A stretch of DNA of 64,000 nucleotides from Mobula hypostoma (lineage: Eukaryota). Below are positions 3,170 through 63,112 of this stretch, piece by piece. The translations under genes were made by a program, and so were the position numbers. A model generated the notes under the pieces. The model did not search any database. It was not told the origin of the DNA and saw only the letters and a list, made by a program, of their open reading frames with translations. Position 1 is the first letter of the stretch, and every line of letters starts with the position of its first letter. The DNA lies in the NCBI RefSeq assembly GCF_963921235.1, contig NC_086097.1:128466001-128530000 (forward strand). The letters are read 5' to 3'.

Positions 3170-3440
3170 CGGCTTGAGGCTGGGGTCTTCGAGGCTTGGG
3201 TTCTTGGGTTCTTGGAGCTTGGCTTGGGCTCTTCGAGGCTTGGGTTCTTGGAGCTTGGCTTGGGCTCTTCGAGGCTTGGGTTCTTGGAGCTTGACTTGGC
3301 CTCTTCGAGGCTTCAGTTCTTGGAGCTTCTCCTGGGCAGGGCGCGGGCCTTGGGTCTTGAGCTATGGAGACTAGGGTCTTCAGGCTTGGGTTCTTGGAGC
3401 TCGGCTTGGGATCTCCGAGGCTTGGGTTCTTGGAGCAACT
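3170..3440. repeat. 36-bp minisatellite inside the LTR
   Basis: Unit ctcttcgaggcttgggttcttggagcttggcttggg; cttcgagg recurs at 3231, 3267 and 3303. Confidence 0.9.
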
Positions 3441-3489
3441 CCTAGGCAGGACGCGGAACTCTTGGGCAGGACGCAGAACTTCACCCCAC

Positions 3490-17340: not shown

Positions 17341-17829
17341 TACATCATTAAAAGGTCAGAAGGCCGTGGCACACAACCCAAGATGATTGCATTGCAAACT
17401 GAAGCATTAAAAAGAAGCACATATTCATATTCCCTGCACAGGCAGTGAAGTTTTCTCCCCTCTCTTATGCAATGTAACAAATGACCCAGACAGCCAGAAT
17501 TACTTTGCAGCCAACTCCCTTTGTGTCTCTCCCCCATTTCACAGCTATAAGGCAATCAGCAGAACCATTTATCAATTCAAAACTGGGAACACAGGATTGT
17601 GGATATCAAAGGTATTCAATGAACAGTCTGACCTGGTAGCTTTCGATTGATGATTCGGTGAGTGGCTTGTAATAATCTGGTTATGATATAGATATTTTCT
17701 ATATTTAGTCTCCTGCCACTGCTGTTTCCATTTGCATCACAATGCAACGTTGACCGGTTTCAGCAGTGCTTCCTGTGGCGAACCACTTCCATACAGGTGC
17801 AATGGGACCTGATGGAGCAGCAGGAAGAT

Positions 17830-19015
17830 CTGGTCATTGCAGATTCCAGGCTGCAGGAGTGCGTGCTGAGGGACATGTTGAAGCTTGGTGCAGCTACTGC
17901 AAGGGCTCCGTGGGGAAGGACCACTGTATAGGGTACAGGAGCAGGGAGGTACTACTGCAGTTGTACAAGGCCTTGGTGAGACCACACCTGGAATACCGTG
18001 TGCAGTTTTGGTCCCCTAATCTGAGGAAAGACATCCTTGCCATAGAGGGAATACAAAGAAGGTTCACCAGATTGATTCCTGGGATGGCAGGACTTTCATA
18101 TGATGAAAGACTGGATCGACTAGGCTTATACTCTCTGGAATTTAGAAGATTGAGGGGGGATCTTATTGAAAAGTATAAAATTCTAAAGGGATTGGACAGG
18201 CTAGATGCAGGAAGATTGTTCCCGATGGTGGGGAAGTCCAGAACCAGAGGTCACAGTTTAAGGATAAAGGGGAAGCCTTTTAGGACCGAGATGAGGAAAA
18301 ACTTCTTCACACAGCGAGTGGTGAATCTGTGGAATTCTCTGCCGCAGGAAACAGTTGAGGCCAGTTCATTGGCTATATTTAAGAGGGAGTTAGATATGGC
18401 CCTTGTGGCTCAAGGGATCAGGGGGTATGGAGAGAAGGCAGATACAGGGTTCTGAGTTGGATGATCAGCCACGTTCATACTGAATGGCGGTGCAGGCTCG
18501 AAGGGCCGAATTGCCTCCTCCTGCACCTATTTTCTATATTTCTATGTTTCTATGTTCGTCCGCTACTGAAGAGGGAAGGGTCGGGCTGAGTGAGGAAGCC
18601 ACTCCCTCACCCAGGCTGGGAACACCCACCCTTAGGTCCACCTGATGCTTGCTGGTTTCCCAGCACAGTGTGAAGTCCATAGTGCAATGCTGCCAGCTGG
18701 CACTGTCCAGTTCGCCAGGGTTTGTGCCAAGGGGTGTACTGAAGCTTGGTGTAGCTAATGCAGGGGCTCTGAGGGGAAGGAGTACTATCTGGGCTCCTCC
18801 CACTACCACTCATGGAGGGGCTGAGTCAGGTGGGGAAGGCCCTCAAACAATGAAAGAGTGTAACACATCAGGGGGTCACAGGGACAGCAATAACGCTGTG
18901 AATTTAAAAATACGTTAACACCACCGGATGCACTGATCATGAGTGTAAAAGAGTTGCAGTGCTTCTTTTGCATATGTTTTTATTATGAACAAAGTTCATG
19001 TTTGAAATGTTGAAA
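17830..19015 (+). mobile_element. Two Tx1-like (L1 clade) 3' remnants (~17830-17930 and ~18560-19015) around a CR1 insertion
   Basis: Both blocks encode a similar C-terminus (SRLQECVLRDMLKLGAATARAPWGRTTV and LKLGVANAGALRGRSTI) and are similar to each other. An A-rich end lies near 19015. Confidence 0.55.
17931..18555 (+). mobile_element. Young CR1 3' fragment with an open ORF2 C-terminus
   Basis: Uninterrupted YRSREVLLQLYKALVRPHLEYRVQFWSP...RRLRGDLIE...TRGHSL...FFTQRVVNLWNSLP, then a (TTTCTATG)n tail. Confidence 0.95.
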
Positions 19016-19642
19016 AAGGATGATCTGGTCTTACCCACTGGACACTGAGGGGTGAACCATGTGCAAGGAGCTGTCGGGTGCATTGTTTAGAGGCAACGTG
19101 AGCGGCATTAGTGCTTTTGTTGAAAGAAAGCATTAAACTGAAGACTTGACAGTATCACGACTGTGTAGAATGGGCAATCTTAATAATGTAAAGAAAGCCA
19201 TGTACTGGATATTCTTGTAAATGATTTTACGAATATTAATTTTTTAAATCTGATATTTTCCCTGTTTTCCACACTACCACTCTTCCCAATCTCTTTATTA
19301 AACAGAAGAGCAGAAGAGCTGCAAGGCATGAATAAAGATCTACTTTAATGTACTTAATGTAGCATGAAAATACAACAAAGGTGGTTAAGAAAACTATGTT
19401 TAAATCAAATTGACACCAAGCCATTTGGTGGAGATGCCAAATTTTGGGGTAAAGAGATAAGATCTGTGATATCTCCAGCCAGAAGTGAAGGTCTAAGGAG
19501 GGACTTTTGGAATTGAGACTCTGCCAGCTAAAGACTTACCCACTAGAAATGGGTTGATCAAAACTTGTAATGTTCAAAGGCCTGAAATGGAGCAGCTCAG
19601 ACACCTTGGGAGATCGTAGAGTTGCAGTTAACTACAGATATA

Positions 19643-20195
19643 TATGGTTTTCGGTCGGGCGCCAGGCGCTCGGAGAGATTGGTGGGGGGTGGGTGTCCAG
19701 CGCTCGGCCGGGGGCCATGGTCGAGTGGCCGGCGACTTGGGCCGGCTCCCCCCACCGGACTTAGTCTGGTGAGGAGGGTGTGAGGACACCCAGCAGGACT
19801 AAAAAAAAACAAGACCTGACAAAGGGTGGATGAGCTCCTTGTGAGCCAACGGCCATCTTCCGTGGAAGAGATTAAAGCCTCACCACGTATCTACGAATCG
19901 TATGCCATGCACCTAGTTAGAAGAGACATGGTGAACTTGGGCGCTGCACTGTGTGCCTGGTCCTGCTCAAGGCCTCCGCCTAAGGAAGGGCCGAGCTTGA
20001 AGAAGCGGCCACGGCTGGGAGCCGACACGGCCTCGGGCTCGAGTTCAGCGGGGGTGGCAGCGGGCGGTGCCAAAGCGGCCAATGAGAACAAACTGGAGGA
20101 GAGGCTGTACTCGGTGCCGTCACAAGATCGAAGAAAATGGAGGTGCATAGCCGCCAACCCCGGATTCGGGACGTCACCCACTGACTGACTGACTG
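19643..20195 (+). mobile_element. Chimeric non-autonomous RTE-type retroposon carrying a captured host gene fragment
   Basis: TSD AGATATA at 19636-19642 and 20196-20202; (ACTG)n tail; RTE-like C-terminal QDRRKWRCIAANP; CpG-rich relative to the flanks. Confidence 0.75.
19943..20117 (+). pseudogene. ZFTRAF1: Retroposed fragment of the ZFTRAF1/CYHR1 N-terminal coding region
   Basis: KKRPRL, an Ala/Gly/Ser linker and KLEERLYSV match the remembered vertebrate CYHR1/ZFTRAF1 pattern PPKKR...GKLEERLYSVLCCTVC. It is truncated just before the RING cysteines. Confidence 0.7.
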
Positions 20196-20654
20196 AGATA
20201 TAGAGGAATGGTAAGATTGAAAAAGGTAAACAGCAAATGATCTGCTGGAGGAACTCATCAGGTTTAGCAGCATCGAGAGGGAATTTATTTGTTGATGTTT
20301 CTGGTCAAAACCCTGAACCTTCGTTCATTTGTTCTTTTTTATGTTTTCTCTAACCCAATTTGATTTTATGAATGACTTTTCAAACTTATGGTTAGTTATA
20401 TTAATATCCTTTATTTGATTGAGTTAGAAGGAGAAATATGCCACTGATTCTTTGCATCCTTATTTCAATTTCCTCCTAATTTACAGGATCTCAGCTCTCT
20501 CATTCATTCCGTTGCTAAATTATCTCAGATTCAGCCCTTTGTTCTTTGCTGATTCTTCTCTGTTGTTTTTCAAATTTAAACCTTATCGCTGCTCTTCCTA
20601 CTTCCAAGGTGCTTCTACTATGCTCTGTTCACCTCCCTGACCTACTATTAGCTG

Positions 20655-38145: not shown

Positions 38146-39504
38146 TGATAACCATGGACCCGGAGAAAGTGTGCATCATCATTGAATGGCCCCGACTGCG
38201 CTCCCTCAAACAGCTACAACAATTCTTGGGCTTCTCCAACCTTACCACCATTTCATTTCATCAGGAACTGCAGCCAAATCACTGCTTCTCTCACCAAATC
38301 ACCTACCTCACAGATGACCCGGTCTGCTGCTGCAGACCTTATTTTCAAAGTGCTCAAGAGATGCTTCACCACTGCTCTCATTCTCCATCGTCCAAACACA
38401 TGCAGACCTTTTGTGGTAGGAGTGGATGCATCTGATGTGGGCACTGGAGTCATCCTTTTCCAGTGAGGACCAGACTGGAAGGGCACACCCTAGTGCCTTC
38501 TTCTTGTACAAGTTCAACTCTGCACAGCAGCGTTATGGAGTAGAAGTCAGGCAGCTACTTTCCATTAAATGAGCCTTGGGAGAATGAAGCCAACAGTTGA
38601 TGGGACCAACAGAATCTCCTATCCATAAATTGGGTCCACCAACTCAACCTATATCAGGGATGCTGGGTCCTCTTCTTCAAGCAATTCAACTCTTACCGAA
38701 GCAGCCCTACGAACACTGAGGTGGACGTCCTGTCATGACAGTTTGACCCAGTCAAAATGGAGGCCCATCATTCCATCTTCTCTTCCCATCCCTCTCCACC
38801 TCCCACTCTTACTCCTCATTCTCCCACCTCCTCCCCCTCTCCTTCCTTCCCACTCTCCCTCTCTCCTTCCTGCTCTCTCTCTCTTTCTGCTCCTGCTCTC
38901 CGCCCTCTCCTCTCCCCCTCCTACTATGCCTCACGCATGCCCAAACACCCTGCCAGTTGATGGCTGATCTTTTATCCCAGTGTCACTCTCTTTGTATTGA
39001 TTCCCCTTAACAATCCTCCCTCAGCCACTTACTGCTTCTCCCTCTATCACCCACAACTCTTTCTTTCCTTCTTCCATGTTACATTTTCTGTACCAATGAC
39101 AGTTTCATTAGGTACCCTGAGTGTCAGGGATAGACCAAATAGCAGCAAGTGTGAATGTGCAGTTAATCATTGATGCTGGCTTTATGCTTCATGTGTTACA
39201 CAGGCATCAAGGTGTTAACGGAATCACATACGTTGTAAGAGGTTAGGCAGTGTGTGGGCAGCAGGTGTAATGGTCTCTTGCCAAAGGACCAGGCCCTTGG
39301 TCCCTCCTCGCCCCTCTCCAACCATCGACCGACTCTTGGATTTTCTGCGATCCCAGTTCCAGTGGCCCACCATGATCACAAATGCACATTAGTTCACCGC
39401 TGCCTGCCCTCAATTTGCCCAGTGCAGTTCCTCCAACCAGCAGCCCTTTGGGCTCCTACAGTCTCTACTGTTTCCCTGAACACCCGTGCTCCCATGTTGA
39501 TACC

Positions 39505-40125
39505 CTATAAGAAAGCTTATGGGGTGTTAGCTTTCATAAGTCTAGGGATAGAGTTTAAGAGTCGCGAGGTAATGATGCAGCTCTGTAAAACTTTGGTTAG
39601 GCCACACTTGAAGTACTGTGTCGAGTTCTGGTCGCATCACTATAGGAAGGATGTGGAAGCATGGGAAAGGGTACAGAGGAGATTTACCAGGATGCTGCCT
39701 GGTTTAGAGAGTATGGATTATGATCAGAGATTAAGGGAGCTAGGGCTTTACTCTTTGGAGAGAAGGAGAATGAGAGGAGACATGATAGAGGTGTACAAGA
39801 TAATAAGAGGAATAGATAGAATGGATAGTCAACGCCTCTTCCCCAGGGCACCACTGCTCAATACAAGAGGACATGGCTTTAAGGTAAGGGGTGGGAAGTT
39901 CAAAGGGGATATTAGAGGAAGGTTTTTTTTTGAGTGGTTCGTGCATGGAATACACTGCCTGAGTCAGTGGCGGAGGCAGATACACCAGTGAAATTTAAGA
40001 GACTACTAGACAGGTATATGGAGGAATTTAAGGTGGGGTGTTATATGGGAGGCAGGGTTTGAGGGTCGGCACAACAATGTGGGCCGAAGGGCCTGTACTG
40101 TGCTGTACTATTCTATGTCCTATGT
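39505..40125 (+). mobile_element. CR1 3' fragment inserted in the Gypsy integrase region
   Basis: KKAYGVLAFISLGIEFKSREVMMQLCKTLVRPHLKYCVEFW...RRMRGDMIEVYK with a TTCTATG-type tail. Confidence 0.92.
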
Positions 40126-49269: not shown

Positions 49270-49992
49270 AATAGAAACATAGAGAAACCACAGCGCAATA
49301 CAGGCACTTCGGCCCACAAAGCTGTGCCAAGCATGCCCTTACCTGAGAAATTACCTAGGGTCCCATAGCCCTCTGTTTTACTGAGCTCCATATAACTGTC
49401 CAGGAGTCTCTTAAAAGACCCTATCATATCCACCTCCACGACCATCACCAGCAGCCTATTCCACAAAGTCACCACTCTCTGTGTAAAAAACTTATTCTGA
49501 CCTCTCCTCTGTACCTGATTCCAAGCGCTTTAAAACTGTGCCCTCTCATGCCAGCCATTTCAGCCCTGAGAAAAAGCCTCTGACTATCCACACGATCAAT
49601 GCCTCTCATCATCTTGTACAACTCTAAAAGGTCACCTCTCATCCTCCGTCGCTCCGAGGAATGAAGGCTGAGTTCACTCAACCTATTCTCATAAGACATG
49701 CTCCTCAATCCAGGCAAGATCCTTGTAAATCTCCTCTGCACCCTTTCTATTGTTTCCACATCCTTCCTATAGTGAAGATACCAGAACTGAACACAGTACT
49801 CCAAGTGGGGTCTGACCAGAGTCCTATATAGCTGCAACATTACCTCTCGGCTCCTAAACTCATTCCCACAATTGATGAAGGCCAATGCACCGTATGCTTT
49901 CTTAACCACAGAGTCAACCTGCGCAGCAGCTTTAAGTGTCCTATGGACTCGGACCCCAAGATCCCTCGGATCCTCCACACTGCCAGGAGTCT
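49270..49992 (-). mobile_element. CR1 3' fragment
   Basis: RDLGVRVHRTLK...LYRTLVRPHLEYCVQFW...RRMRGDLLELYK. Confidence 0.92.
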
Positions 49993-51584
49993 TTGCTCCA
50001 ATCATTTTAAAATTTTGACTTGTTGTACAAGCTGTAAATTGTCAATGTTTCAGGCTGAAAGCCTGCTTTAGGACTGAGAGTGGAGATACAGGATGGTCTG
50101 CGTAGAGTGGAGAAGGAGAATGGGAAGAAAGGACTTTGAGGAGATTGCTTCACTGAGAAGAAGTGTAGATGACAAGTAGGTGGAGCCAGGCTGGGGAGGT
50201 GAGTGGGAGTAGAGTAGGAAGACTGTGACAGGAGAATGATAGATGGAGGCAGACAAAGAGATTGAGGAAAATGAAACAGAGCCAGTTTTGATGAAGGGTC
50301 CTGGCCTGAAAAGCTGATTACTTATTCCCCTCCATAGATGCAACCTAAATTCTTCCAGTATTTTTTGTATGTGTTACTGTCAGACAAAAGATGGAGCAAG
50401 GAGGAGAGGGGAGACTGGAGGTCGATGCTGGAGGACGATAAACAGGAACACCAGTGCTGGGTTCCAGTAAGTAAAGAAGATGAGAATGGGAGCCAGTAGA
50501 GGAGAAGGAAAGGGTGGACGATCGTTGGAACCAGGTGGAAATTGTTGGTGGTGGTGAGATTGGGGGTGGGCATAGTGATGTTAGTGAAATAGTGAGGAGA
50601 TTGGGAACAAAGACCGGTGAAAGGGGATGGGGGGACAGTGGGAAGTGAAGCAAAAATAGGCGGATCAGAAGGAGACGGGGGAGGCAGGGAAAAAGGAAAG
50701 ACGAAGGGAAATTAACTAAAATCAGAAAACTCGGTATTCATTGCATCAGGTTGTAGGCCACGTAGGCTCAAGGGAAAATGGGCCAAGCCTCTTCAGTCTC
50801 TCCCACTAACTAAAAAGTTCTTTCTCAGGTAACATCTTGGTGAATCTCCTCTTGCCCTCTCCAGTGTGCGCTGGTTCCGTCCCACATCCCAAAGAAATGC
50901 AGGCACAAAAGAGACTGCATAATGTTGGAAACCTAGAGGAACTCAGCTGCCCAGGCAGCATCAATGAAGGAAAATGAACAGTCAACATTTTGGGCCAAGA
51001 CCCTTCATCCTGATGATGTTTCTGGGTTTCTCCAGTGTTTTGTGAGTGTTGCTAGGCTAATTACCCCCTGAAAATTGCCCTTAGTGAGTAGGTGATCTAT
51101 AAAATCTGGGTCGATGAGAATATGGGGAAAATAGCTGGAGGATTTCTCTGTGAAACAATATAGACTAAACAGCCAGAAATAGTCTTGTATATTGTAAGGA
51201 AGAAGTAAATATGAGAGTGGGTAGTTTCTGAGACAATAAAGGGATCACAAGGGTACAGACATCGATAGTGTCAGGAACAAGGTGGCGGAGAGTCATGTTG
51301 GCTGGTGACGCACTCAAAGGAATCTACATACTAATTTCAAAGTGTTCTCTCAGGAGACTTTATGACCATGAAGTTCATTCTACGTGTGTCACGCTTGACC
51401 TACTGTAGAGTGAAACTACTATTGTGCTCCTTTTCTTAAATTTGCATTGGTTTCAACTTCACTGGATTTCAAGAATTCCGGAACAGTGGTGGCCATTTCT
51501 AAACTGCTACAAATGCTGCTAGGCAAGGACAATTTTCTCCCCTGTTTATTATTCCTGGAGAATGAAACATTTTGTTAGTAAATT

Positions 51585-52234: not shown

Positions 52235-53440
52235 AACCATAGAACACTACAGCACAGAAAACAGGCCATTCGGCCCTTCTAGTCTGTGCCGAAACTTTAT
52301 TCCGCTAGTCCCATTGACCTGCACCCAGTCCGTAACCCTCCAGACCTCTCTCATCCATGTATCTATCCAAATTATTCTTAAAACTTAAGAGTGAACACAC
52401 ATTTACCACATCAGATGGCAGCTCGTTCCACACTCCCAACACTCTCTGAGTGAAGAAGTTCACCCTAATATTCCTAACCTTTCCCCTTTCACCCTAAAGC
52501 CATGTCCTCTCATATTTATCTCTCCTAGTCTAAGTGGAAAGAGCCTACTCGCATTTATTCTGTCTAATTTTGTAAACCTCTATCAAATCCCCCCTCATTC
52601 TTCTACGCTCCAAGGAATAAAGTCCTAACCTGTTCAATCTTTCCCTGTAACTCAACTCCTGAAGACCTGGTAACATCCTAGTAAATCTTCTCTGGACTCT
52701 TTCAATCTTACTGATATCCTTCCTATAGTTAGATGACCAGAATTGCACACAATACTCCAAATTTGGCCTCACCAATGTCTTATACAACCTCACCATAACA
52801 TCCAAACTCCTATACTCAATGCTTTGATTTATGAATGCCAGGATGCCAAAAGCCTTCTCTACAACCCTGTCTACCTGTGATGCCACTTTCTGGGAATTAT
52901 GTATCTGAACTCCCAGATCCCTTTGTTCCTCCGCACTCCTCAGTGCCCTCCCATTTGCTGCGTATGTCCTACCTTGATTTGTCCTTCCAAAATGCAACAC
53001 CCTCACACTTGTCTGCATTAAATTCCATCTGCCATTTTCTAGCCCATTTTTCCAGTTGGTCCAGATCCCTCCTTTTGAAAGCCTTCCTCGCTGTCCACAA
53101 CACCTCCAATCTTAGTGCCATCAGTAAACTTGCTGATCCATTTTACCACATTATCATCTAGATCATTGAGAAAAACAACAAACAACAATGGTCCCAGCAC
53201 AGATCCCTGAGGCACACCACTAGTCACAGGCCTCCAGTCTGAGAAGCAAACATCCACTACCACTCTCTGTCTTCTCCCACACAGGCAATTTCGAATCCAG
53301 TTTAAATCTTTCCATGGATACCTAGTGTCTGAAACTTCTGAACTAACCTCCCATGTGGGACCTTGTCAAAAGCCTTACTAAAGTCCATGTAGACAACATG
53401 CACAGCCTTTCCTTCATCTACTTTCTTGGTAACCTCCTCG
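52235..53440 (-). mobile_element. CR1 LINE, 5'-truncated, with RT core
   Basis: WRPVTSGVPQGSVLGPLLF..FLNDLD..ISKFTDGTKIGG and LYKTLVRPNLEYCVQFW. Confidence 0.95.
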
Positions 53441-54085: not shown

Positions 54086-56129
54086 ACTGTGGTGTTATTC
54101 GAATCCCTTCCTTGACAATAATGATGTGGTGATAAGGGTAGATAACAAATAATGAGCAAGATTCATCCATTCTGACACTGACCTACTATAGACATAATGA
54201 TTTATTTCTGCAGCGTAACTTCAACGCAACTAAGAGAGTTAATATATTTTCAGATCTACTTTGATCAGAATATTTTCTGTTGCATGACTAACCAGCCAAT
54301 TGTAAAACTAACATTCTGTACACACTTGAATTTTATTTCTGTGCTCCAGGGCCTCATAAGTCAGTTCTGTCCAAATTCAAAGATACCTCTCATTAATCAT
54401 TAGATATGCAAACTGAATTAAGGCAACTATATCTAATGTGAGGTATGGCAGCACTGAGGATTTCAAAATGTAAAGCAATTTACCACTGTACACTGAGGGT
54501 CACTTGTACACTTTGTGATAAAACTGTGGCGCTAATGATGGCAGATTATTGGACTGAGGAGATCTGCTGCCTTTAGATCCTGCTTTAATTTATGATTAGC
54601 AGTCTGCTCATGGTTCCAACAAGGCACCTTCTGTCTATACATTTTTACACACCCAACAGTCCTCTTTTCTGCGATTGCACACAAGAAGACAGAGGCATAC
54701 TTTTGTCTGAGAGGTGAAGAGGCAGGGGTGGGAATGGGGGCACTCCCAGCAGGCTTGCTGTTCCCCAATTGGAAGTAAGGGAGCAAGGTCACTTGCAAAG
54801 TTCATGTCGCCTGGGGACAGATGCCTTCCTTCCTGCCCTCTTGCACTCTTCCGGTTTGTCAATAGCTTTGCAAATGCATCACAGATTCAACTACACAAGT
54901 AATATCATCTTAGTTCGATTGCACATCTCTAAAATTACTTTGTACTTGCAGAGTATGTCATCAAATTGAACTGAATCTCCCTAAATTTAATCAGTTTACT
55001 GCTCCTTCCTATTGAATTTTCTTTTCTTCTTGTTGATGAACCTCTATTCATCGAGGGCTAACCTATGAGTGAAAAGACAGAACGTCTAATCAAAATTTAA
55101 TTATTCTTTATGGGAACTTGCTGTTTAGAAACTACCCAGTATTATCTGTGTTAAAATAGCAACTTCATTAGTATTTCTATGGCTGTAGTGCTCTGCAGTA
55201 CGTCCTGAACTAGGGGACTTTAATACTTGCTTATGACATTGAAATAGATCATTTGGCCCATCAAGTCTAGACAGAGCAATTCCTTTCCTCCCTCTAGATC
55301 CTCCCTGAGAGCATTTCTCATCAAAATTTCAACAAGACCTTCTATATTTACCACCACCTACATACCTACATATGGAGAATACTTTGGCCAACACTCTGTG
55401 GCCTAAGGTGAATTTCTTCTCCCAGATATCTCCCTATGCGTCCTTCCAGTGTTTGGTTGGCATTGTCAAATTATCACATGGAGAACAGTAAATACAACCC
55501 TCACCTTAGCAAAGGACTTTGATAAAAACTGCACAGCTCCAGTGCACCTTTAGATTAAACATTATTTTACAGCTGTGATTGAAACAATTGAACCTTGGAG
55601 GACAGAAAGATTGACCCATAGAACTGGATGATGTATTAGCACAGAGGTGACATTGCCTTATGATGCATCGGCTCTGAAATCCATTTGTCAAGAAGTGTCA
55701 CGATGCAGGTTCTGTACCATGAGCTTGTGCATAATGAGTTCTTATTGTCTTCCTCAGGGGATACTCTGGAATATTTCAGGTTGGGAGCATTGGCAGAGGT
55801 CAGATAATTTAAGTAAGGGAGAAAAGCAACCCAAAAAGCAGCGAAAATGTGCTCTCTAAGATCTAAGAGCATCAGATGTGACATTTCCTCTTTTATCCCC
55901 AACCTACCAGAGCCATCCCCTTCCAAGTGAAGCAAATTGGTGCTGCACTCGCTGCTCATAGTACTCTGGAGAAAACAAACATAGACTAGCTATTTGCATT
56001 CTTACTACACCTGAGGTTAGTCCACAAGGACCATCCTGAGCTTGCAGGTGGCTGCTGTTACTGGGAATTGAGTCACTGGAGACATTGAAGCTAGCAGCTA
56101 TAAAAAATCTTCATTCATCATGACAAGCA

Positions 56130-58770
56130 GATCTTCCCTTGGCACTGAGCACCTGCACTTCTTCCACAATGGCCTGCCAGAGCACCCGGTTACAAGACGT
56201 TTTAATTCCCCTTGTCATTCTCACACTGATCTGTCTTTTCTTAGCCTCATTGAATTCCAGGGTGAGGTTAAATGCAAACTAGAGGAACAGAAACTCATAT
56301 TCCATCTGGATAGTCTACAGCTCAATGGCATTAATGTTGAATTCCCTCCCTCCCCTTTCTCAATCTCTCTACCTCCAACTCTGGAGATAAACTTTCGACC
56401 AACAGCTTTTATAATCCTACTGATTCCCATGGTTATCTTGACTATACCTCTTCCCACCCTGTTTACTGTAAAAATGCTATTGCCTTTTCTCACAAACACA
56501 GAAAATCTGCAGGTGCTGGAAATCCAAGGCAAGACGTACACAATGCTGGAGGAACTCAGCCAGCCAGGCAGCATCTGTGGAAATCAATGCTTCTGAATGG
56601 CTTCATCAGGATTGGAAAAAAAAAGATGAGAAGTCAGAGTAGGAAGGCAGTGACCGGGAGGGGAGGAAGAGATATAAGGTGATAGGTAAAACTGAGAGAG
56701 GGGGATGGGGAAGTAAAGAATGGAAGTTGATTGCTGAAAGACATAAAGGGATGGAGAAGGGGAAATCTGATAGGAGAGGGTAGAAGACCATGGAAGAAAG
56801 GGAAGCAGGAGGAGTACCAGTGAGTGGTGATGGGCAGGTAAGGAAAGTGTGAGAGAGGAAAACAAGAATGCGGAACAGTGAAGATGGGGGGGATTATTAA
56901 CCAGAGGTTCAAGAAATCGATGTTCTTGCCATCAGGTTGGAGGCTACCCCGATGGAATATAAGGTGTTGCTCCTGGTGGCCACCTCTATATCAGTGAGAA
57001 CTGACATAGATTGTGAGGCTGCTTTGCTGAGCAACTAAGCCCCATCCACCAGAAAAAGTAGGATCTTCCAGTAGGCACCCATTTCAACTCTACTTCCCAT
57101 TCCCATCCTGACGTGTCAGCCCATGGCCTCCTCCACTGCTGCGATGAAGCCACACTCAGGTTGGAGGAGCAACATCTTATATTCCATCTTAGTAGACTCC
57201 AGCCAGATAGGCACAAACATCGAATTCTTGAGCTTCCGGTAATTGCCCCCTCTTCGCCATTCCCTATTCTTCTTTCCCTCTTTCACCTTTCTCCTTACCT
57301 GCTCATCCCACCCCCTTCCCCTCCCAGTGTTCCTCCTACTTCGTCTTCTTCCATGGTCTTCTACCCTCTCCTATCAAATTCCCTTCTTCCAGCCTTCAGC
57401 TTCCCAGTTCTTTACCTCACTCCTTCTCTCCTCCCAGTCACCTATCACCTACCACCTTGTATTTCTTTCTCCCCTCCTCCACCTTCTTTCTCAGACTTCT
57501 CATCTTTTTTCCAGTCCTGATGAAGGGTCTCAGACCAACACTTCAGCTGTTTATTCCTATCCATTAATGCTGCCTGACCTGTTGAGTTTCTCCAACAATT
57601 TGTGTATTCCCGTTTCTCAGTTCCTTGGTCTCCACCATATCTAATCCCACATGCAGCTCTCCTTTCCAGGACATTAGAGGTGTCCTCCTTCTTCAGAAAA
57701 CAGGGTTTATCTTTCTCCACTATTGATGTTGCCCTCATTCACATCTTCTCTATTTCCCAAACATCTTCACTCACCCCACCTTCCTGCCGCCCTAACTCTG
57801 GTAGAGTTCCACTTGTCCTCACCTACCACTCCATGAGCCTCCGCATCCAACACATCATTCTCTGCAACTGCTCCCATTTCCAAAGGGATCCTACCTCCAA
57901 ACGTATCTTTCCCTCTCCTACCTCTCTCTGCTTTTTGTAGGGATTGCTTCCGCCTTGATTCCGTTGTCAATTCATCACTCTCCACTGATCTCCCTCCCAG
58001 CACTTATCCCTGCAAGCAGCCAAAGCGCTACACCTGCCCATTCACCTCCTCCCTCATCTTCATTCAGGGCCGCAAACAGTCCTTCCAGGTGGGGCAACAC
58101 TTCCCCTGCAGATCTGCTGGGGCTGGCTATTGTGTTCGGTGCTCCTGAAGCGGACTCTACATTGGTGAGACCCATCGTAAATCAGGGGAGTGCTTCATCG
58201 AGCACCTCCGCTCCATCTCCCTAATGTGGAACTTCCTGGTGGCCAGACATTTTATTTCCTATTCCCTTTCCCATTTTGACATGTTGGTCCATGACCTCCT
58301 CTCATAGCCACCCTCAGTGTGGAGGAGTGACACCTTATGTTCCGTCTAGGTAGTCTTCAACTTAATGGCATGAATATCAATTTCTTCTTCCTCTAAAAAA
58401 AATTCCCTCCCCATTCTCTTTTCTTCTATTCCCCACTCTGGCCTCTTACCTCTTCTCAACTGACTATCACCTCCCCTTGAGTCCCTTCCTCCCTCCCCTT
58501 CTCCTATGGACTACTCTGTTCTCCTATCAGATTCCTTCCTTTCCAATCCTTTCTCTTTCCCACCCACCTGGCTTCACCTATCACCTTCTATCTATTCCCC
58601 CTTCCCCTCCCCCCACCTCTTTACTCTGGCGCCTCCCCCCGCCACTTCCTTGTCAATCCTGATGAAGGCTGTCAGCTCAAAATGTTGACTGTTCATTAAT
58701 TTCCATAGATGCTGCCTGACCTGCTGAGTACCTGCAGCATCTTGCGTGTGTTGCTCTGGATTCCCTGGGT
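56130..58770. mobile_element. Cluster of Penelope-like elements: old fragment (56130-56480), inverted copy (56490-56975), two tandem plus-strand copies (56975-57610, 57620-58770)
   Basis: GLLHCCDEATLRLEEQHLIFHL; degenerate GIY-YIG; pyrimidine-rich tails ending cctgatgaagg...gatgctgcctgacctg. Confidence 0.85.
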
Positions 58771-60074: not shown

Positions 60075-62123
60075 AGTACGCCATTTTCTCAACACCCACA
60101 CACTTCTTGCACTTGGTCCCTTCCAGATGCAGTTCCCATCTGTCCTCCTCACCTCCCTTATTTTATTCCTCTTCACCATCCTTCCTTCTCTTATTCCAAA
60201 CTCAGCCTACCTTGTTGCCTGCACATCACCTCCAAGTCTCTGTTGGTATCTCCACCCCTCCATAACCCGTAAATCTATCCTCACTTGGATGCTCTTATCT
60301 CTTCCCAGCTCTTGCCCTATCTCTCCTCTTCATCTCTTTATACTGGCTATTTCTCCTTTTCCTTTCAATCCAAATGAAGGGTCATGACCCAAATCATTTC
60401 CCTCCACCAATGCTGTCTTACCCGTTGAAATAATATAGAACAATACTGCACAGCACTGGCCCTTTGGCCCACAATGTTCTGTCAATCTTTTAATGTACCC
60501 TCAGATCAATCTATTCTTTGCTTATCTAAGTGTTTCTTAAATCCCATTATTGTGTCTTCCTCTACCTAGCTGGGCACTCACCATTCTCTGTGTAAAAAAA
60601 TTACCTCTGACACCTCCACAATACTTTAATCCAAACGCCTTAAAATTGTGCCCCTTCATATTGGTTATTTTCACCTTGGGATAAAGTCACCTCTCATCAT
60701 CCTTTTCACCAAAGAGAAAAGCCATAGCTCACTCATCCTTTCCTCACATGCTCTTAAATCCCGAACATTCTGGTAAATCTCTGTTGCATCCTCTCCAAAG
60801 CTTCCACATCCTTCCTATAATGAGGCGACCAGAATCATACACACTGTACTAAGCATCACGGATATCTTACTCCAAAATCTATAGAAGCTACAAAATCTCA
60901 GGGCGTCAGAATTTGGAGCTCAGTTCCAGCATCTTCTTTTAGCACATTTACATGTTCCTTCCCAAGTGTGCATGAGTTTCCTCTGGGTGCTCCAGTTTCC
61001 TCCCACAGTCCAAAGACATACCAGTTAGTAGTTTAATTGGTCATTGCAAATTGCCCCATGATTAGGCTAGGTATTTCTGGAAAGGCAAGAAGGGCCTATA
61101 TCCCTAAATAAATGAATAAATAATATTTCAAATGTGGTTAAACCACAGCTTTATAGAGCTGCAACATTACCTCAAACTCAATCCCCAACTAACGAAGGCC
61201 AACAATCCATTCACCTTCTTAACAACTCTTTCAATTTGTGCGGTGTGGACCCCAAAATCCCTCTGTTCCTCCACACTGGCACGAGCACTATATTCTGCCT
61301 TCAACTTTGACCTTCTGAAGTGAATCACTTCACATCTTGCTGGATTCAACTCCATCTGCCACTTCTCAGCGCAGTTCTGCATCCTGTCAATGTCCCACTA
61401 TAACCTACGTCAACTTTCTACTCTATCCACAACTCCACCAACTTTTGTATCACCTGCAATCTTACAAAGATCCAAGTCATTTATAAAATTCACAAAGAGC
61501 AGGGGTTTCAGAACAGATCCTGATGGAGCACCACTGGACACCAACCTTCAGGCTGAATATACACCATCTACAATCACCCTCTCGTTTCTGTGAGCAAGAC
61601 AAATCTGAATCCACACAACCATGTCTCCCTGGATCCCATGGCTCTTGACTTTCTAAATGAGGAAACCATGGGGAACATTATCAAACTTCTAACTAAAATA
61701 TGTGTACATTACATTCACTGCTCTACCTTAATCGACATGCTTTGTCACATCCTCAAAGAATTCAGTCAGGTTCACAAGGCATGACCTTCCTTTCACAAAG
61801 CCATGCTGACTATTTGTGACTACATCCATTCACAGTTTTACATGCCCAGGTTCCTGTCTAATAGCATCATAATTCGCCCTCCCCTAATTAAGTACTTCCC
61901 CATACCTTCTACTCCTACCTCACTCCAAGACAATGGTAAATGTCAGGAAGTTGTGGTCTCTGCCACCTAAATGCTCACCCACTGAGAGATCTGACACCTG
62001 ACCAGATCCAAAATGGATTCTCCTCTAGTCAGTCTGTCTACGTGTTGTATAGGAATCCCTTCTGGACACAATCAACAGATTTCACTCCATATAAATCTTT
62101 TACACTGAACAGGTAAAATTCAA

Positions 62124-63112
62124 GCACACCAAGCACATCTTTCCCTCCCCCCCACTGCTTTCCACAGGGATCGCTCCCTACGCGACTCCCTTGTCCATTC
62201 GTCCCCCCCATACCTTCCCACTGATCTCCCTCCCGGCACTTATCCTTGTAAGCGTAACAAGTGCTACACTTGCCCTCACACTTTCTCCCTCACCACCATT
62301 CAGGGCCCCAGACAGTCCTTCCAGGTGAGGCAACACTTCACCTGTGAGTCGGTTGGTTTGATATACTGCATCTGGTGCTCCCGGTGTGGCCTTTTATATA
62401 TTGGTGAGACCCGACACAGACTGGGAGATCGTTTCACTGAACAATTACACTCTGTCTACCAGAGAAAGCAGAATCTCCCAGTGGCCACACATTTTAATTC
62501 CACGTCCCATTCCCATTCTGATATGTCTACCCATGGCCTCCTCTGCTGTCAAGATGAAGCCACACTCAGGTTGGAGGAACAACACCTTATATTCCGTCTG
62601 GGTAGCCTCCAACCTGATGGCATGAACACTGATTTCTCTAACTTACATTAATACCCCTCCTCCCTTTCTTACCCCATCCCTTATTTATTTATTTATTTAT
62701 TATTCCCTCTTTTTTTTCCTCTCTCTTTTTTCTCTCTCTGTCCCTCTCACAACCACTTTTTGCCTGCTCTCCATCTTCCTCTGGGCTCGCCTCCCCCTTT
62801 CTTTCTCCCTAGGCCTATCGTCCCATGATCCTCTCCCTTCTCCAGCTCTGTATCCCTTTTGCCAATCAACTTTCCAGCTCTTAGCTTCATCCCTCCCCCT
62901 CATGTCTTCTCCTATAATTTTGGATCTCACCCTCCCCCTCCCACTTTCAAATCTCTTACTATCTCTTCTTTCAATTAGTCCTGACGAAGGGTCCTGGCCG
63001 GAAACATCGACTGTACCTCTTCCTATGGATGCTGCCTGGCCTGCTGTGTTCCACCAGCATTTTGTGTGTGTTGCTTGAATTTCCAGCATCTGCAGATTTT
63101 CTCGTGTTTGCG
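62124..63112 (+). mobile_element. Young Penelope-like element, 5'-truncated, GIY-YIG endonuclease
   Basis: LIYCIWCSRCGLLYIGETRHRLGDRFTEQ...RLEEQHLIFRLGSLQPDGMN. Perfect 13-bp TSD aggtaaaattcaa (62111-62123, 63113-63125). Confidence 0.93.
62977..63012 (+). ncRNA. Minimal type I hammerhead ribozyme motif in the Penelope terminal repeat
   Basis: agtc-CTGACGA-agggtcctggccg-GAAAC-ATC-gact: both conserved core boxes, helix I agtc/gact, and an NUH triplet (AUC). Confidence 0.7.

Follow-up and report, generated by a model that had tools for sequence, protein, structure and literature searches.

A GC-rich insert at positions 19643-20195 of the window (the whole 64,000-nucleotide stretch of Mobula hypostoma DNA analysed here) is one member of an amplified family of chimeric elements, in which a circularly permuted piece of the host gene ZFTRAF1 is enclosed between the two ends of an RTE-type LINE, and whose 5' head is an inverted repeat that very probably carries the marks of RNA editing. 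We propose, as the account that the evidence on balance favours, that this is a non-autonomous retroposon mobilised in trans by the LINE, and that both the exon capture and the edited fold-back would go back to its founder.

All parts of the insert lie on the forward strand. Target-site duplications of 7 nt flank it at 19636-19642 and 20196-20202, as a sequence-only reading of this DNA had claimed; both are read from the letters themselves, and the left one was also recovered by a TSD script. The (ACTG)n tail of that reading is (ACTG)4 at 20180-20195, its open frame at 19907-20188 translates as it was given, and its description of the insert as GC-rich agrees with its GC content, which in stretches of 200 bases is 0.52-0.64, compared with about 0.3-0.45 for the flanking DNA. 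From the 5' end, the insert begins with the remnant of an inverted hairpin arm (19644-19670; 27 of 53 nt, the reverse complement of RTE 5'-UTR pieces), a loop of sense RTE 5'-UTR with 2 A-to-G differences (19672-19691), and a sense arm made of two RTE 5'-UTR pieces with about 100 nt deleted between them (19692-19744). The remaining RTE 5'-UTR and the first RTE codons follow, with a 7-nt and a 10-nt deletion (19745-19942), then 40 nt of ZFTRAF1 exon 1 (piece B, 19943-19982), 138 nt of the same exon that lie upstream of piece B in the gene (piece A, 19983-20120), and, at 20121-20195, the partner LINE's final 75 nt, which include its stop codon and the (ACTG)4 tail. Full-length family copies begin about 26 nt further 5' than the window copy, which is without the first 26 nt of the head; the full-length copies have 3 A-to-G sites there.

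An amplified family from a past wave

A 25-letter pattern laid over the internal junction occurs at 787 places in the genome (3.48 Gb in 200 contigs searched), with 0 for a control. The pattern recovers 35 of 43 sampled copies, which scales the count to about 970, a floor since the sample is biased, and we estimate the family at about 1,000 copies. When the genome was searched with the insert, 40 of 1,876 candidates were scored, and all 39 that were not the insert itself proved near full length at 90-92% identity. Target duplications of at least 7 nt flank 15 copies in a sample of 46, against 1.1% of 2,070 shuffled flank pairs; the sample was drawn from loci L001-L061 minus 4 duplicate loci, 10 pure LINE loci and the host locus, and its members were chosen by likeness to the window copy or its 3' end, not at random. 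The earlier proposal of an amplified family with common junctions and differing target duplications is upheld by the 787 junction matches and the 39 near-full-length candidates. A one-off retrocopy is ruled out by a family of at least 787, and a processed pseudogene by the lack of exon-2 sequence and of poly-A.

The retained CpGs had been taken to suggest a recent insertion, which overstates the case. The window copy differs from the family majority by 13.7% at CpG and 3.1% at other positions; for 36 near-full-length copies these differences average 16.9% and 2.6%, respectively, and the closest other copy to the window copy is 92% identical. With such divergence and so distant a nearest copy, the window copy did not insert freshly but belongs, as an ordinary member, to a past wave.

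Three marker pairs examined for subfamily structure were without linkage (P 0.08-0.72). The 5' ends of the 46 sampled copies, a biased set, cluster twice, with 16 at head positions 1-5 and 15 at positions 23-28, the second cluster adjoining a short palindrome of the inverted arm; the two clusters possibly reflect a second master or a truncation hotspot. One copy (L024, at about 2041-2070) has part of the head tandemly duplicated, seen as an extra 51-base match. In a search of sequencing runs, 11 of 24 rows, from 5 organisms, share at least 0.2 of the query's words and no RNA run is listed, a result that is uninformative on species range and expression, the query being a mixture of host exon and LINE.

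The partner LINE

Both ends of the element derive from an RTE-type LINE, as had been supposed: the 3' end is found on LINE copies, and the 5' part matches the LINE 5'-UTR. The last 75 nt match 30 loci, of which the chimeric element accounts for 20 and LINE copies with other upstream sequence for 10, and over this 3' end the family majority and the majority of the 10 LINE copies show zero differences. The 5' part is the LINE 5'-UTR plus first codons with the 7-nt and 10-nt deletions; full-length LINE copies have the same 5'-UTR, and the ATG at 19907 corresponds to the LINE frame's first ATG, the first eight residues being common to both. The residues VNLG had been read as the start of the APE domain. 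They are instead a frameshift product of the 10-nt deletion, eight codons past the first ATG, and are not that start: in the LINE the endonuclease motif (GTWN, as we take it to be) follows only some 60 codons further on, and the element lacks it.

The LINE copies carry stops and frameshifts, and they encode a reverse transcriptase (Pfam RVT_1, E 3e-35). Their N-terminal fragment has no Pfam hit; compared with proteins, 14 of 264 candidates scored, all with endonuclease domains. These relatives, which combine endonuclease and RT domains, are about 1,000 residues long, and one of them is named craniofacial development protein 2-like. A PDB sequence search with the endonuclease fragment gave one hit, which we judged to be chance. 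The LINE measures about 3.2 kb between the 5'-UTR match and the tail in 5 of 5 stitched copies, within the size of about 3-3.5 kb expected of RTE elements, and, as in their layout, its stop codon lies inside the short tandem-repeat tail. The partner LINE is RTE-type, a placement made by structure and not by tree. Its own 3' junction has 303 genomic matches, so that, set against the 787 element junctions, the passenger is more than twofold commoner than the LINE.

Rfam searches on the LINE 5' pieces and one full copy returned hairpin matches below threshold only, with no ribozyme, and no family came close to its gathering score. Of five long LINE copies, three (L093, L094 and L096; positions 1-60 in LINE orientation) have common sequence further 5', in which a pyrimidine-rich run plus AG, placed where the other two copies begin matching, looks like a splice acceptor close to the 5' end of the LINE. 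A 30-nt insertion lies within the 5'-UTR of another LINE copy (L062, at about 25-68).

A permuted ZFTRAF1 exon

That the middle of the insert comes from ZFTRAF1 was stated in the sequence-only reading and holds: the protein of the open frame matched 2 of 1,952 candidate proteins, both of them skate ZFTRAF1/CYHR1 (E 1.0e-4 and 1.5e-4). The extent given there, a segment at 19943-20117, does not, as the host sequence covers 19943-20120 in two pieces of swapped order. A pattern in which the last stretch of the element's host part is set ahead of its first has a single genomic match, which falls within exon 1 of ZFTRAF1; the exons of this gene are 84-98% identical to a skate protein. ZFTRAF1 lies at 227,933,278-228,091,328 of contig C5, as a single copy with four matched exon blocks over about 158 kb.

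Piece A corresponds to host positions 1388-1525 (136 of 138 identical in the family majority, 125 of 138 in the window copy), keeps the host frame and carries KKRPRL and KLEERLYSV. Piece B corresponds to host positions 1526-1565 (39 of 40 in the majority, 36 of 40 in the window copy); it is residues 105-118 of the skate protein P0002, at the start of the RING-like region, and stands out of host frame in the element. In the host the two pieces abut with no gap and no overlap, no base being lost or doubled at the opening point. The middle is 178 nt in circularly permuted order, the downstream 40 nt ahead of the upstream 138 nt, in host sense orientation and without an intron. The loop closes where piece B ends, 4 nt before the exon-1 splice donor, and the closing junction as it stands is without microhomology. 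Replacement by host mRNA through template switching had been suggested for the interior; a colinear piece of mRNA is not what is found, and given the permuted order one simple template switch is insufficient.

Origin of the founder

We hypothesize that the reverse transcriptase of the LINE, having copied 75 nt of the LINE 3' end, would have switched to a 178-nt ZFTRAF1 exon-1 RNA, run to the 5' end of that RNA and passed onto its 3' end, either by jumping end to end on a linear exon-1 fragment or along a covalent RNA circle. On reaching the start of its own cDNA, exactly one turn later, it would have halted and gone back to the 5' region of the LINE. The LINE would recognise the intact 75-nt 3' end of the element and insert it through target-primed reverse transcription. 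The capture and the editing of the hairpin may have come in either order.

The capture probably took place at the RNA level. An RNA template is supported by the host sense orientation, the lack of an intron and the closure 4 nt from the donor, and we favour it for that orientation, for the position of the loop's end at the donor and for the lack of microhomology; reverse-transcriptase switching on an RNA loop is, to our mind, likelier than the integration of a DNA circle. According to PMC4117753, the R2 reverse transcriptase jumps from the end of one template to another, and it also displaces annealed strands, which weakens the idea that the enzyme stops after one turn. The length of the loop counts against RNA capture as well, for 178 bp falls within the 175-185 bp class of germline DNA circles described in the portion of PMC10581685 that we cite.

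Those circles provide a rival origin that we consider somewhat unlikely, namely that the CpG-island first exon gave rise to a mononucleosome-size extrachromosomal DNA circle which, opened by a single cut, was ligated into a broken RTE copy that lost about 2.9 kb; retrotransposition would then have amplified the chimera. Both the 178 bp and the GC-rich origin match the circles of about 180 bp in the cited part of PMC10581685, a single cut accounts for the exact abutment, and the closing junction would have had 3-nt microhomology if 2 nt were lost later. However, that same source gives microhomology-mediated joining as the main route, and the junction now has none; the loop ends 4 nt from a splice donor and holds no intron, and neither LINE join loses a host base. 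Insertion of the LINE into a circle can be rejected, as it would give the order host-LINE-host and not the order seen.

Within capture at the RNA level, which remains our preferred reading, there is an unlikely special case in which true back-splicing, of the exon-1 donor to a cryptic exon-1 acceptor, supplied a circular RNA of 180 nt as the template, with 2 nt lost in the founder; the element would then be an amplified circRNA-derived pseudogene. Piece A starts with AG, and the donor joined to this AG would be 2 nt longer than the element's junction, so that the two differ by a 2-nt deletion in a founder that has other small deletions (4, 7 and 10 nt). Amplified circRNA-derived pseudogenes exist in mouse, according to the cited part of PMC4897178. 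The exact back-splice junction has 0 matches in the genome, with 1 mismatch allowed, and the supposed acceptor is GAG without a pyrimidine tract directly before it. Acceptor sites without such a tract are weak, and to our knowledge first-exon circular RNAs are rare. Surviving intermediates were sought by exact patterns, with 0 genomic matches each for a direct LINE 5'-3' join, the back-splice form, a LINE with the 7-nt deletion and the unedited head, a weak search in that a single change hides a copy.

The chimeric frame

The 93-codon frame at 19907-20188 runs from the first ATG of the LINE into the host frame and on to the LINE's own stop codon. Of 43 sampled copies, 20 have kept it intact and 23 have lost it. 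The suggestion that the element spreads a functional host peptide is not borne out by these counts or by the tests of selection, which are weak. The copies, for the most part dead, decay close to neutrally, and the frame most likely arose as a by-product. Among predicted proteins of similar length, 0 of 20 candidates scored, and Pfam found 0 families in 2 of 2 proteins of the chimeric frame. The basic stretch of the peptide may resemble a nuclear localisation signal.

It is quite unlikely, in our view, that the in-frame fusion was selected, whether because translation aids survival of the RNA or contact with the LINE protein, or because the basic peptide acts itself. The fusion involves two frame coincidences, expected in about 1 of 9 cases by chance, and the spectrum-corrected N/S over the whole frame is 0.83-0.88, below the 0.95-1.07 of the other two frames (a raw N/S of 0.46 was dropped on account of transition bias). 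Stop codons are too few in L001-L030, with 3 seen and 11.2 expected (P 0.004), but this deficit lies mainly in the LINE 3' part (1 against 6.9 expected), the host part having 2 against 4.1 (P 0.22). Frameshifting indels are likewise rarer in the frame (22 in 12,423 bases) than in the 5' part (47 in 10,570 bases), although homopolymer runs inflate the latter count. Set against these signs are the loss of the frame in more than half of the copies and the absence of any similar-length protein or Pfam match, and we see in them a hint of selection at most.

A probably edited hairpin at the head

In the head, two LINE 5'-UTR pieces stand first in inverted orientation and, after a loop, a second time in sense, with a deletion of about 100 nt at the join. 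It folds into about 52 pairs at -103 kcal/mol, against -65.5 (sd 3.9) for shuffled sequences (z -9.7). On the transcribed strand of the stem, A is read as G at 13 of 17 positions and T as C at 0 of 17, with a 4-nt gap placed as the inverted arm shows; a free alignment in which the gap is misplaced gives 12 of 20 and 1 of 21. Ten of the edited sites are on the 3' arm and three on the 5' arm. At all 13 the facing arm retains T and the LINE majority has the unedited base, in a reference of 5 to 9 copies, part of which rests on only 5. Over the whole head, A is changed at 15 of 22 positions, compared with 0 of 55 in the remaining 5' part (P 5e-11) and with 1 of 20 for T (P 2e-5), and the A-to-G changes end where the hairpin ends.

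Hyper-editing by ADAR is recognised by such A-to-G changes, clustered on the transcribed strand and confined to a long duplex. We favour editing because a strand-symmetric process acting on DNA does not give this pattern, whereas A-to-I conversion in duplex RNA followed by reverse transcription does. ADAR disfavours a 5' G neighbour; three of the four unedited stem A have a 5' G, yet 4 of 7 such A are edited, the others being edited in 9 of 10 cases, and the preference is a weak one here. The sense arm has 10 A-to-G sites in the family majority, at 9 of which the window copy has G. At 11 of the 13 sites G is present in at least 85% of covering copies, and the other two, which lie in new CpGs, are mixed. 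We conclude that the head very probably carries ADAR hyper-editing fixed in the founder of the family, judging from the sequence pattern. Through the 5' fold-back a hairpin of about 52 bp, near-perfect in its pairing, would have formed, ADAR would have edited the RNA, and reverse transcription would have fixed the inosines as G in a master copy ancestral to all sampled copies. What the editing attests is that the head passed through RNA; for the capture it is no such evidence. The edited hairpin was missed in the earlier interpretation.

It is very unlikely that the differences stem from another RTE subfamily or from DNA-level AT-to-GC drift: the unedited head is without matches and the LINE reference has only 5 to 9 copies, but the arms copy each other, the partner arm has T at every edited site, the A-to-G changes fall on the transcribed strand in both arms with none of the 17 stem T read as C, which is not strand-symmetric, and the changes stop at the limit of the hairpin. 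At window position 19666 (head position 49), which faces a stem C, G is found in 7 and A in 28 covering copies; either the ancestral state is kept in some copies, or editing of an A-C mismatch continued. In the portions of the literature that we consulted, no repeat family founded on an edited hairpin was found.

Implications and window context

On this account, the element is a record, datable in principle, of two events that are rarely caught, the exact one-turn capture of a piece of host exon and A-to-I editing fixed in the germline. If the reading of a one-turn circular RNA plus an ADAR hairpin is true, a vertebrate germline received both circular RNA and A-to-I editing back as DNA, which was then amplified. 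In its fullest form, this reading traces a family of about 1,000 copies to a host circular RNA that was copied for one turn, together with an ADAR-saturated hairpin, in which the editing and the restored frame helped the element to outrun its LINE, a combination that we regard as distinctly doubtful. The heads of other SINEs described as 'GC-rich, origin unknown' may be edited fold-backs of the 5'-UTR of their LINE. On a practical level, ZFTRAF1 exon 1 has about 1,000 near-copies in this genome, and these will confuse the mapping of reads, the calling of circRNA and the annotation of genes.

Elsewhere in the window, a tandem array with a 36-nt period occupies 3181-3456, inside a minus-strand open frame of 175 codons. 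Other retroelement fragments lie at 17754-18455, 39239-39991, 49469-50041 and 52545-53111, which we take to be CR1/L2-type LINE ends, and at 56072-56596, 57062-57520 and 62109-62651, presumably GIY-YIG endonucleases of Penelope-like elements.

Comparison with known systems

Each ingredient of the element has a precedent, in bipartite RTE derivatives, exon-carrying SVA, permuted pseudogenes and edited retroviral repeats. No paper combining these ingredients was found in the literature searched; Repbase, Dfam and supplements lay outside the search and may list the family without these features. The comparisons that follow draw on parts of the sources named.

The closest structural relatives are bipartite RTE derivatives and RTE-mobilised SINEs such as Bov-A, RTESINE2, RTE-N2_Lch, ManaSINE2 and BuceSINE (PMC5786205, PMC4844689), with which the element has in common an RTE 5'-UTR piece and a short 3' end, a microsatellite tail, a deleted interior, a GC-rich head and amplification in trans. 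Its 5' and 3' parts come from the same LINE with the interior lost, but it does not consist of LINE parts only, as 178 nt of host coding exon lie between them. As in SINEs, dispersed copies have a LINE tail and variable target duplications. A SINE head in the strict sense (tRNA, 5S or 7SL) is absent, with 0 tRNA genes in 3 of 3 loci and the head mapping to the LINE 5'-UTR; the GC-rich head is, on our reading, an edited fold-back of the LINE's own 5'-UTR without a small-RNA gene.

The SVA subfamilies SVA_F1 (MAST2 exon 1) and pt_SVA_D6 (STK40 exon 1), with 84 and 94 copies (PMC6139936), are similar in that a GC-rich host first exon was built into a non-LTR retrotransposon subfamily and amplified. 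Their exons are splice-captured, colinear and placed at the 5' end, whereas that of the element is internal, permuted and not bounded by splice sites, and the element is about ten times as numerous.

In the circRFWD2 pseudogenes of mouse (PMC4897178), too, a non-colinear host exon was multiplied near retroelement sequence. These have exact exon-exon back-splice junctions, LTR flanks and 33 high-confidence copies; the element's junction is also non-colinear but lies within one exon, 4 nt short of the donor and inside a LINE derivative, and it corresponds to a donor-acceptor junction only with a 2-nt loss. The authors of that study point out, in the text cited, that open-ended structured RNAs can leave the same signature as a circRNA.

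LINE-1 chimeras that arise by template switching or RNA ligation (PMC13174262) resemble the element in the fusion of sense cellular RNA to a LINE 3' end; they are mostly single insertions, as against an amplified family here, and 'circular' and 'permut' have 0 occurrences in the text of that paper. Finally, the ADAR hyper-editing of avian retroviral sequences (PMC12925331) left clustered A-to-G changes in an inverted repeat after passage through RNA, as we propose for the head. The avian cases, as described in the part cited, are individual viral sequences, whereas in the family described here the edited form would be the germline founder of a whole repeat family.
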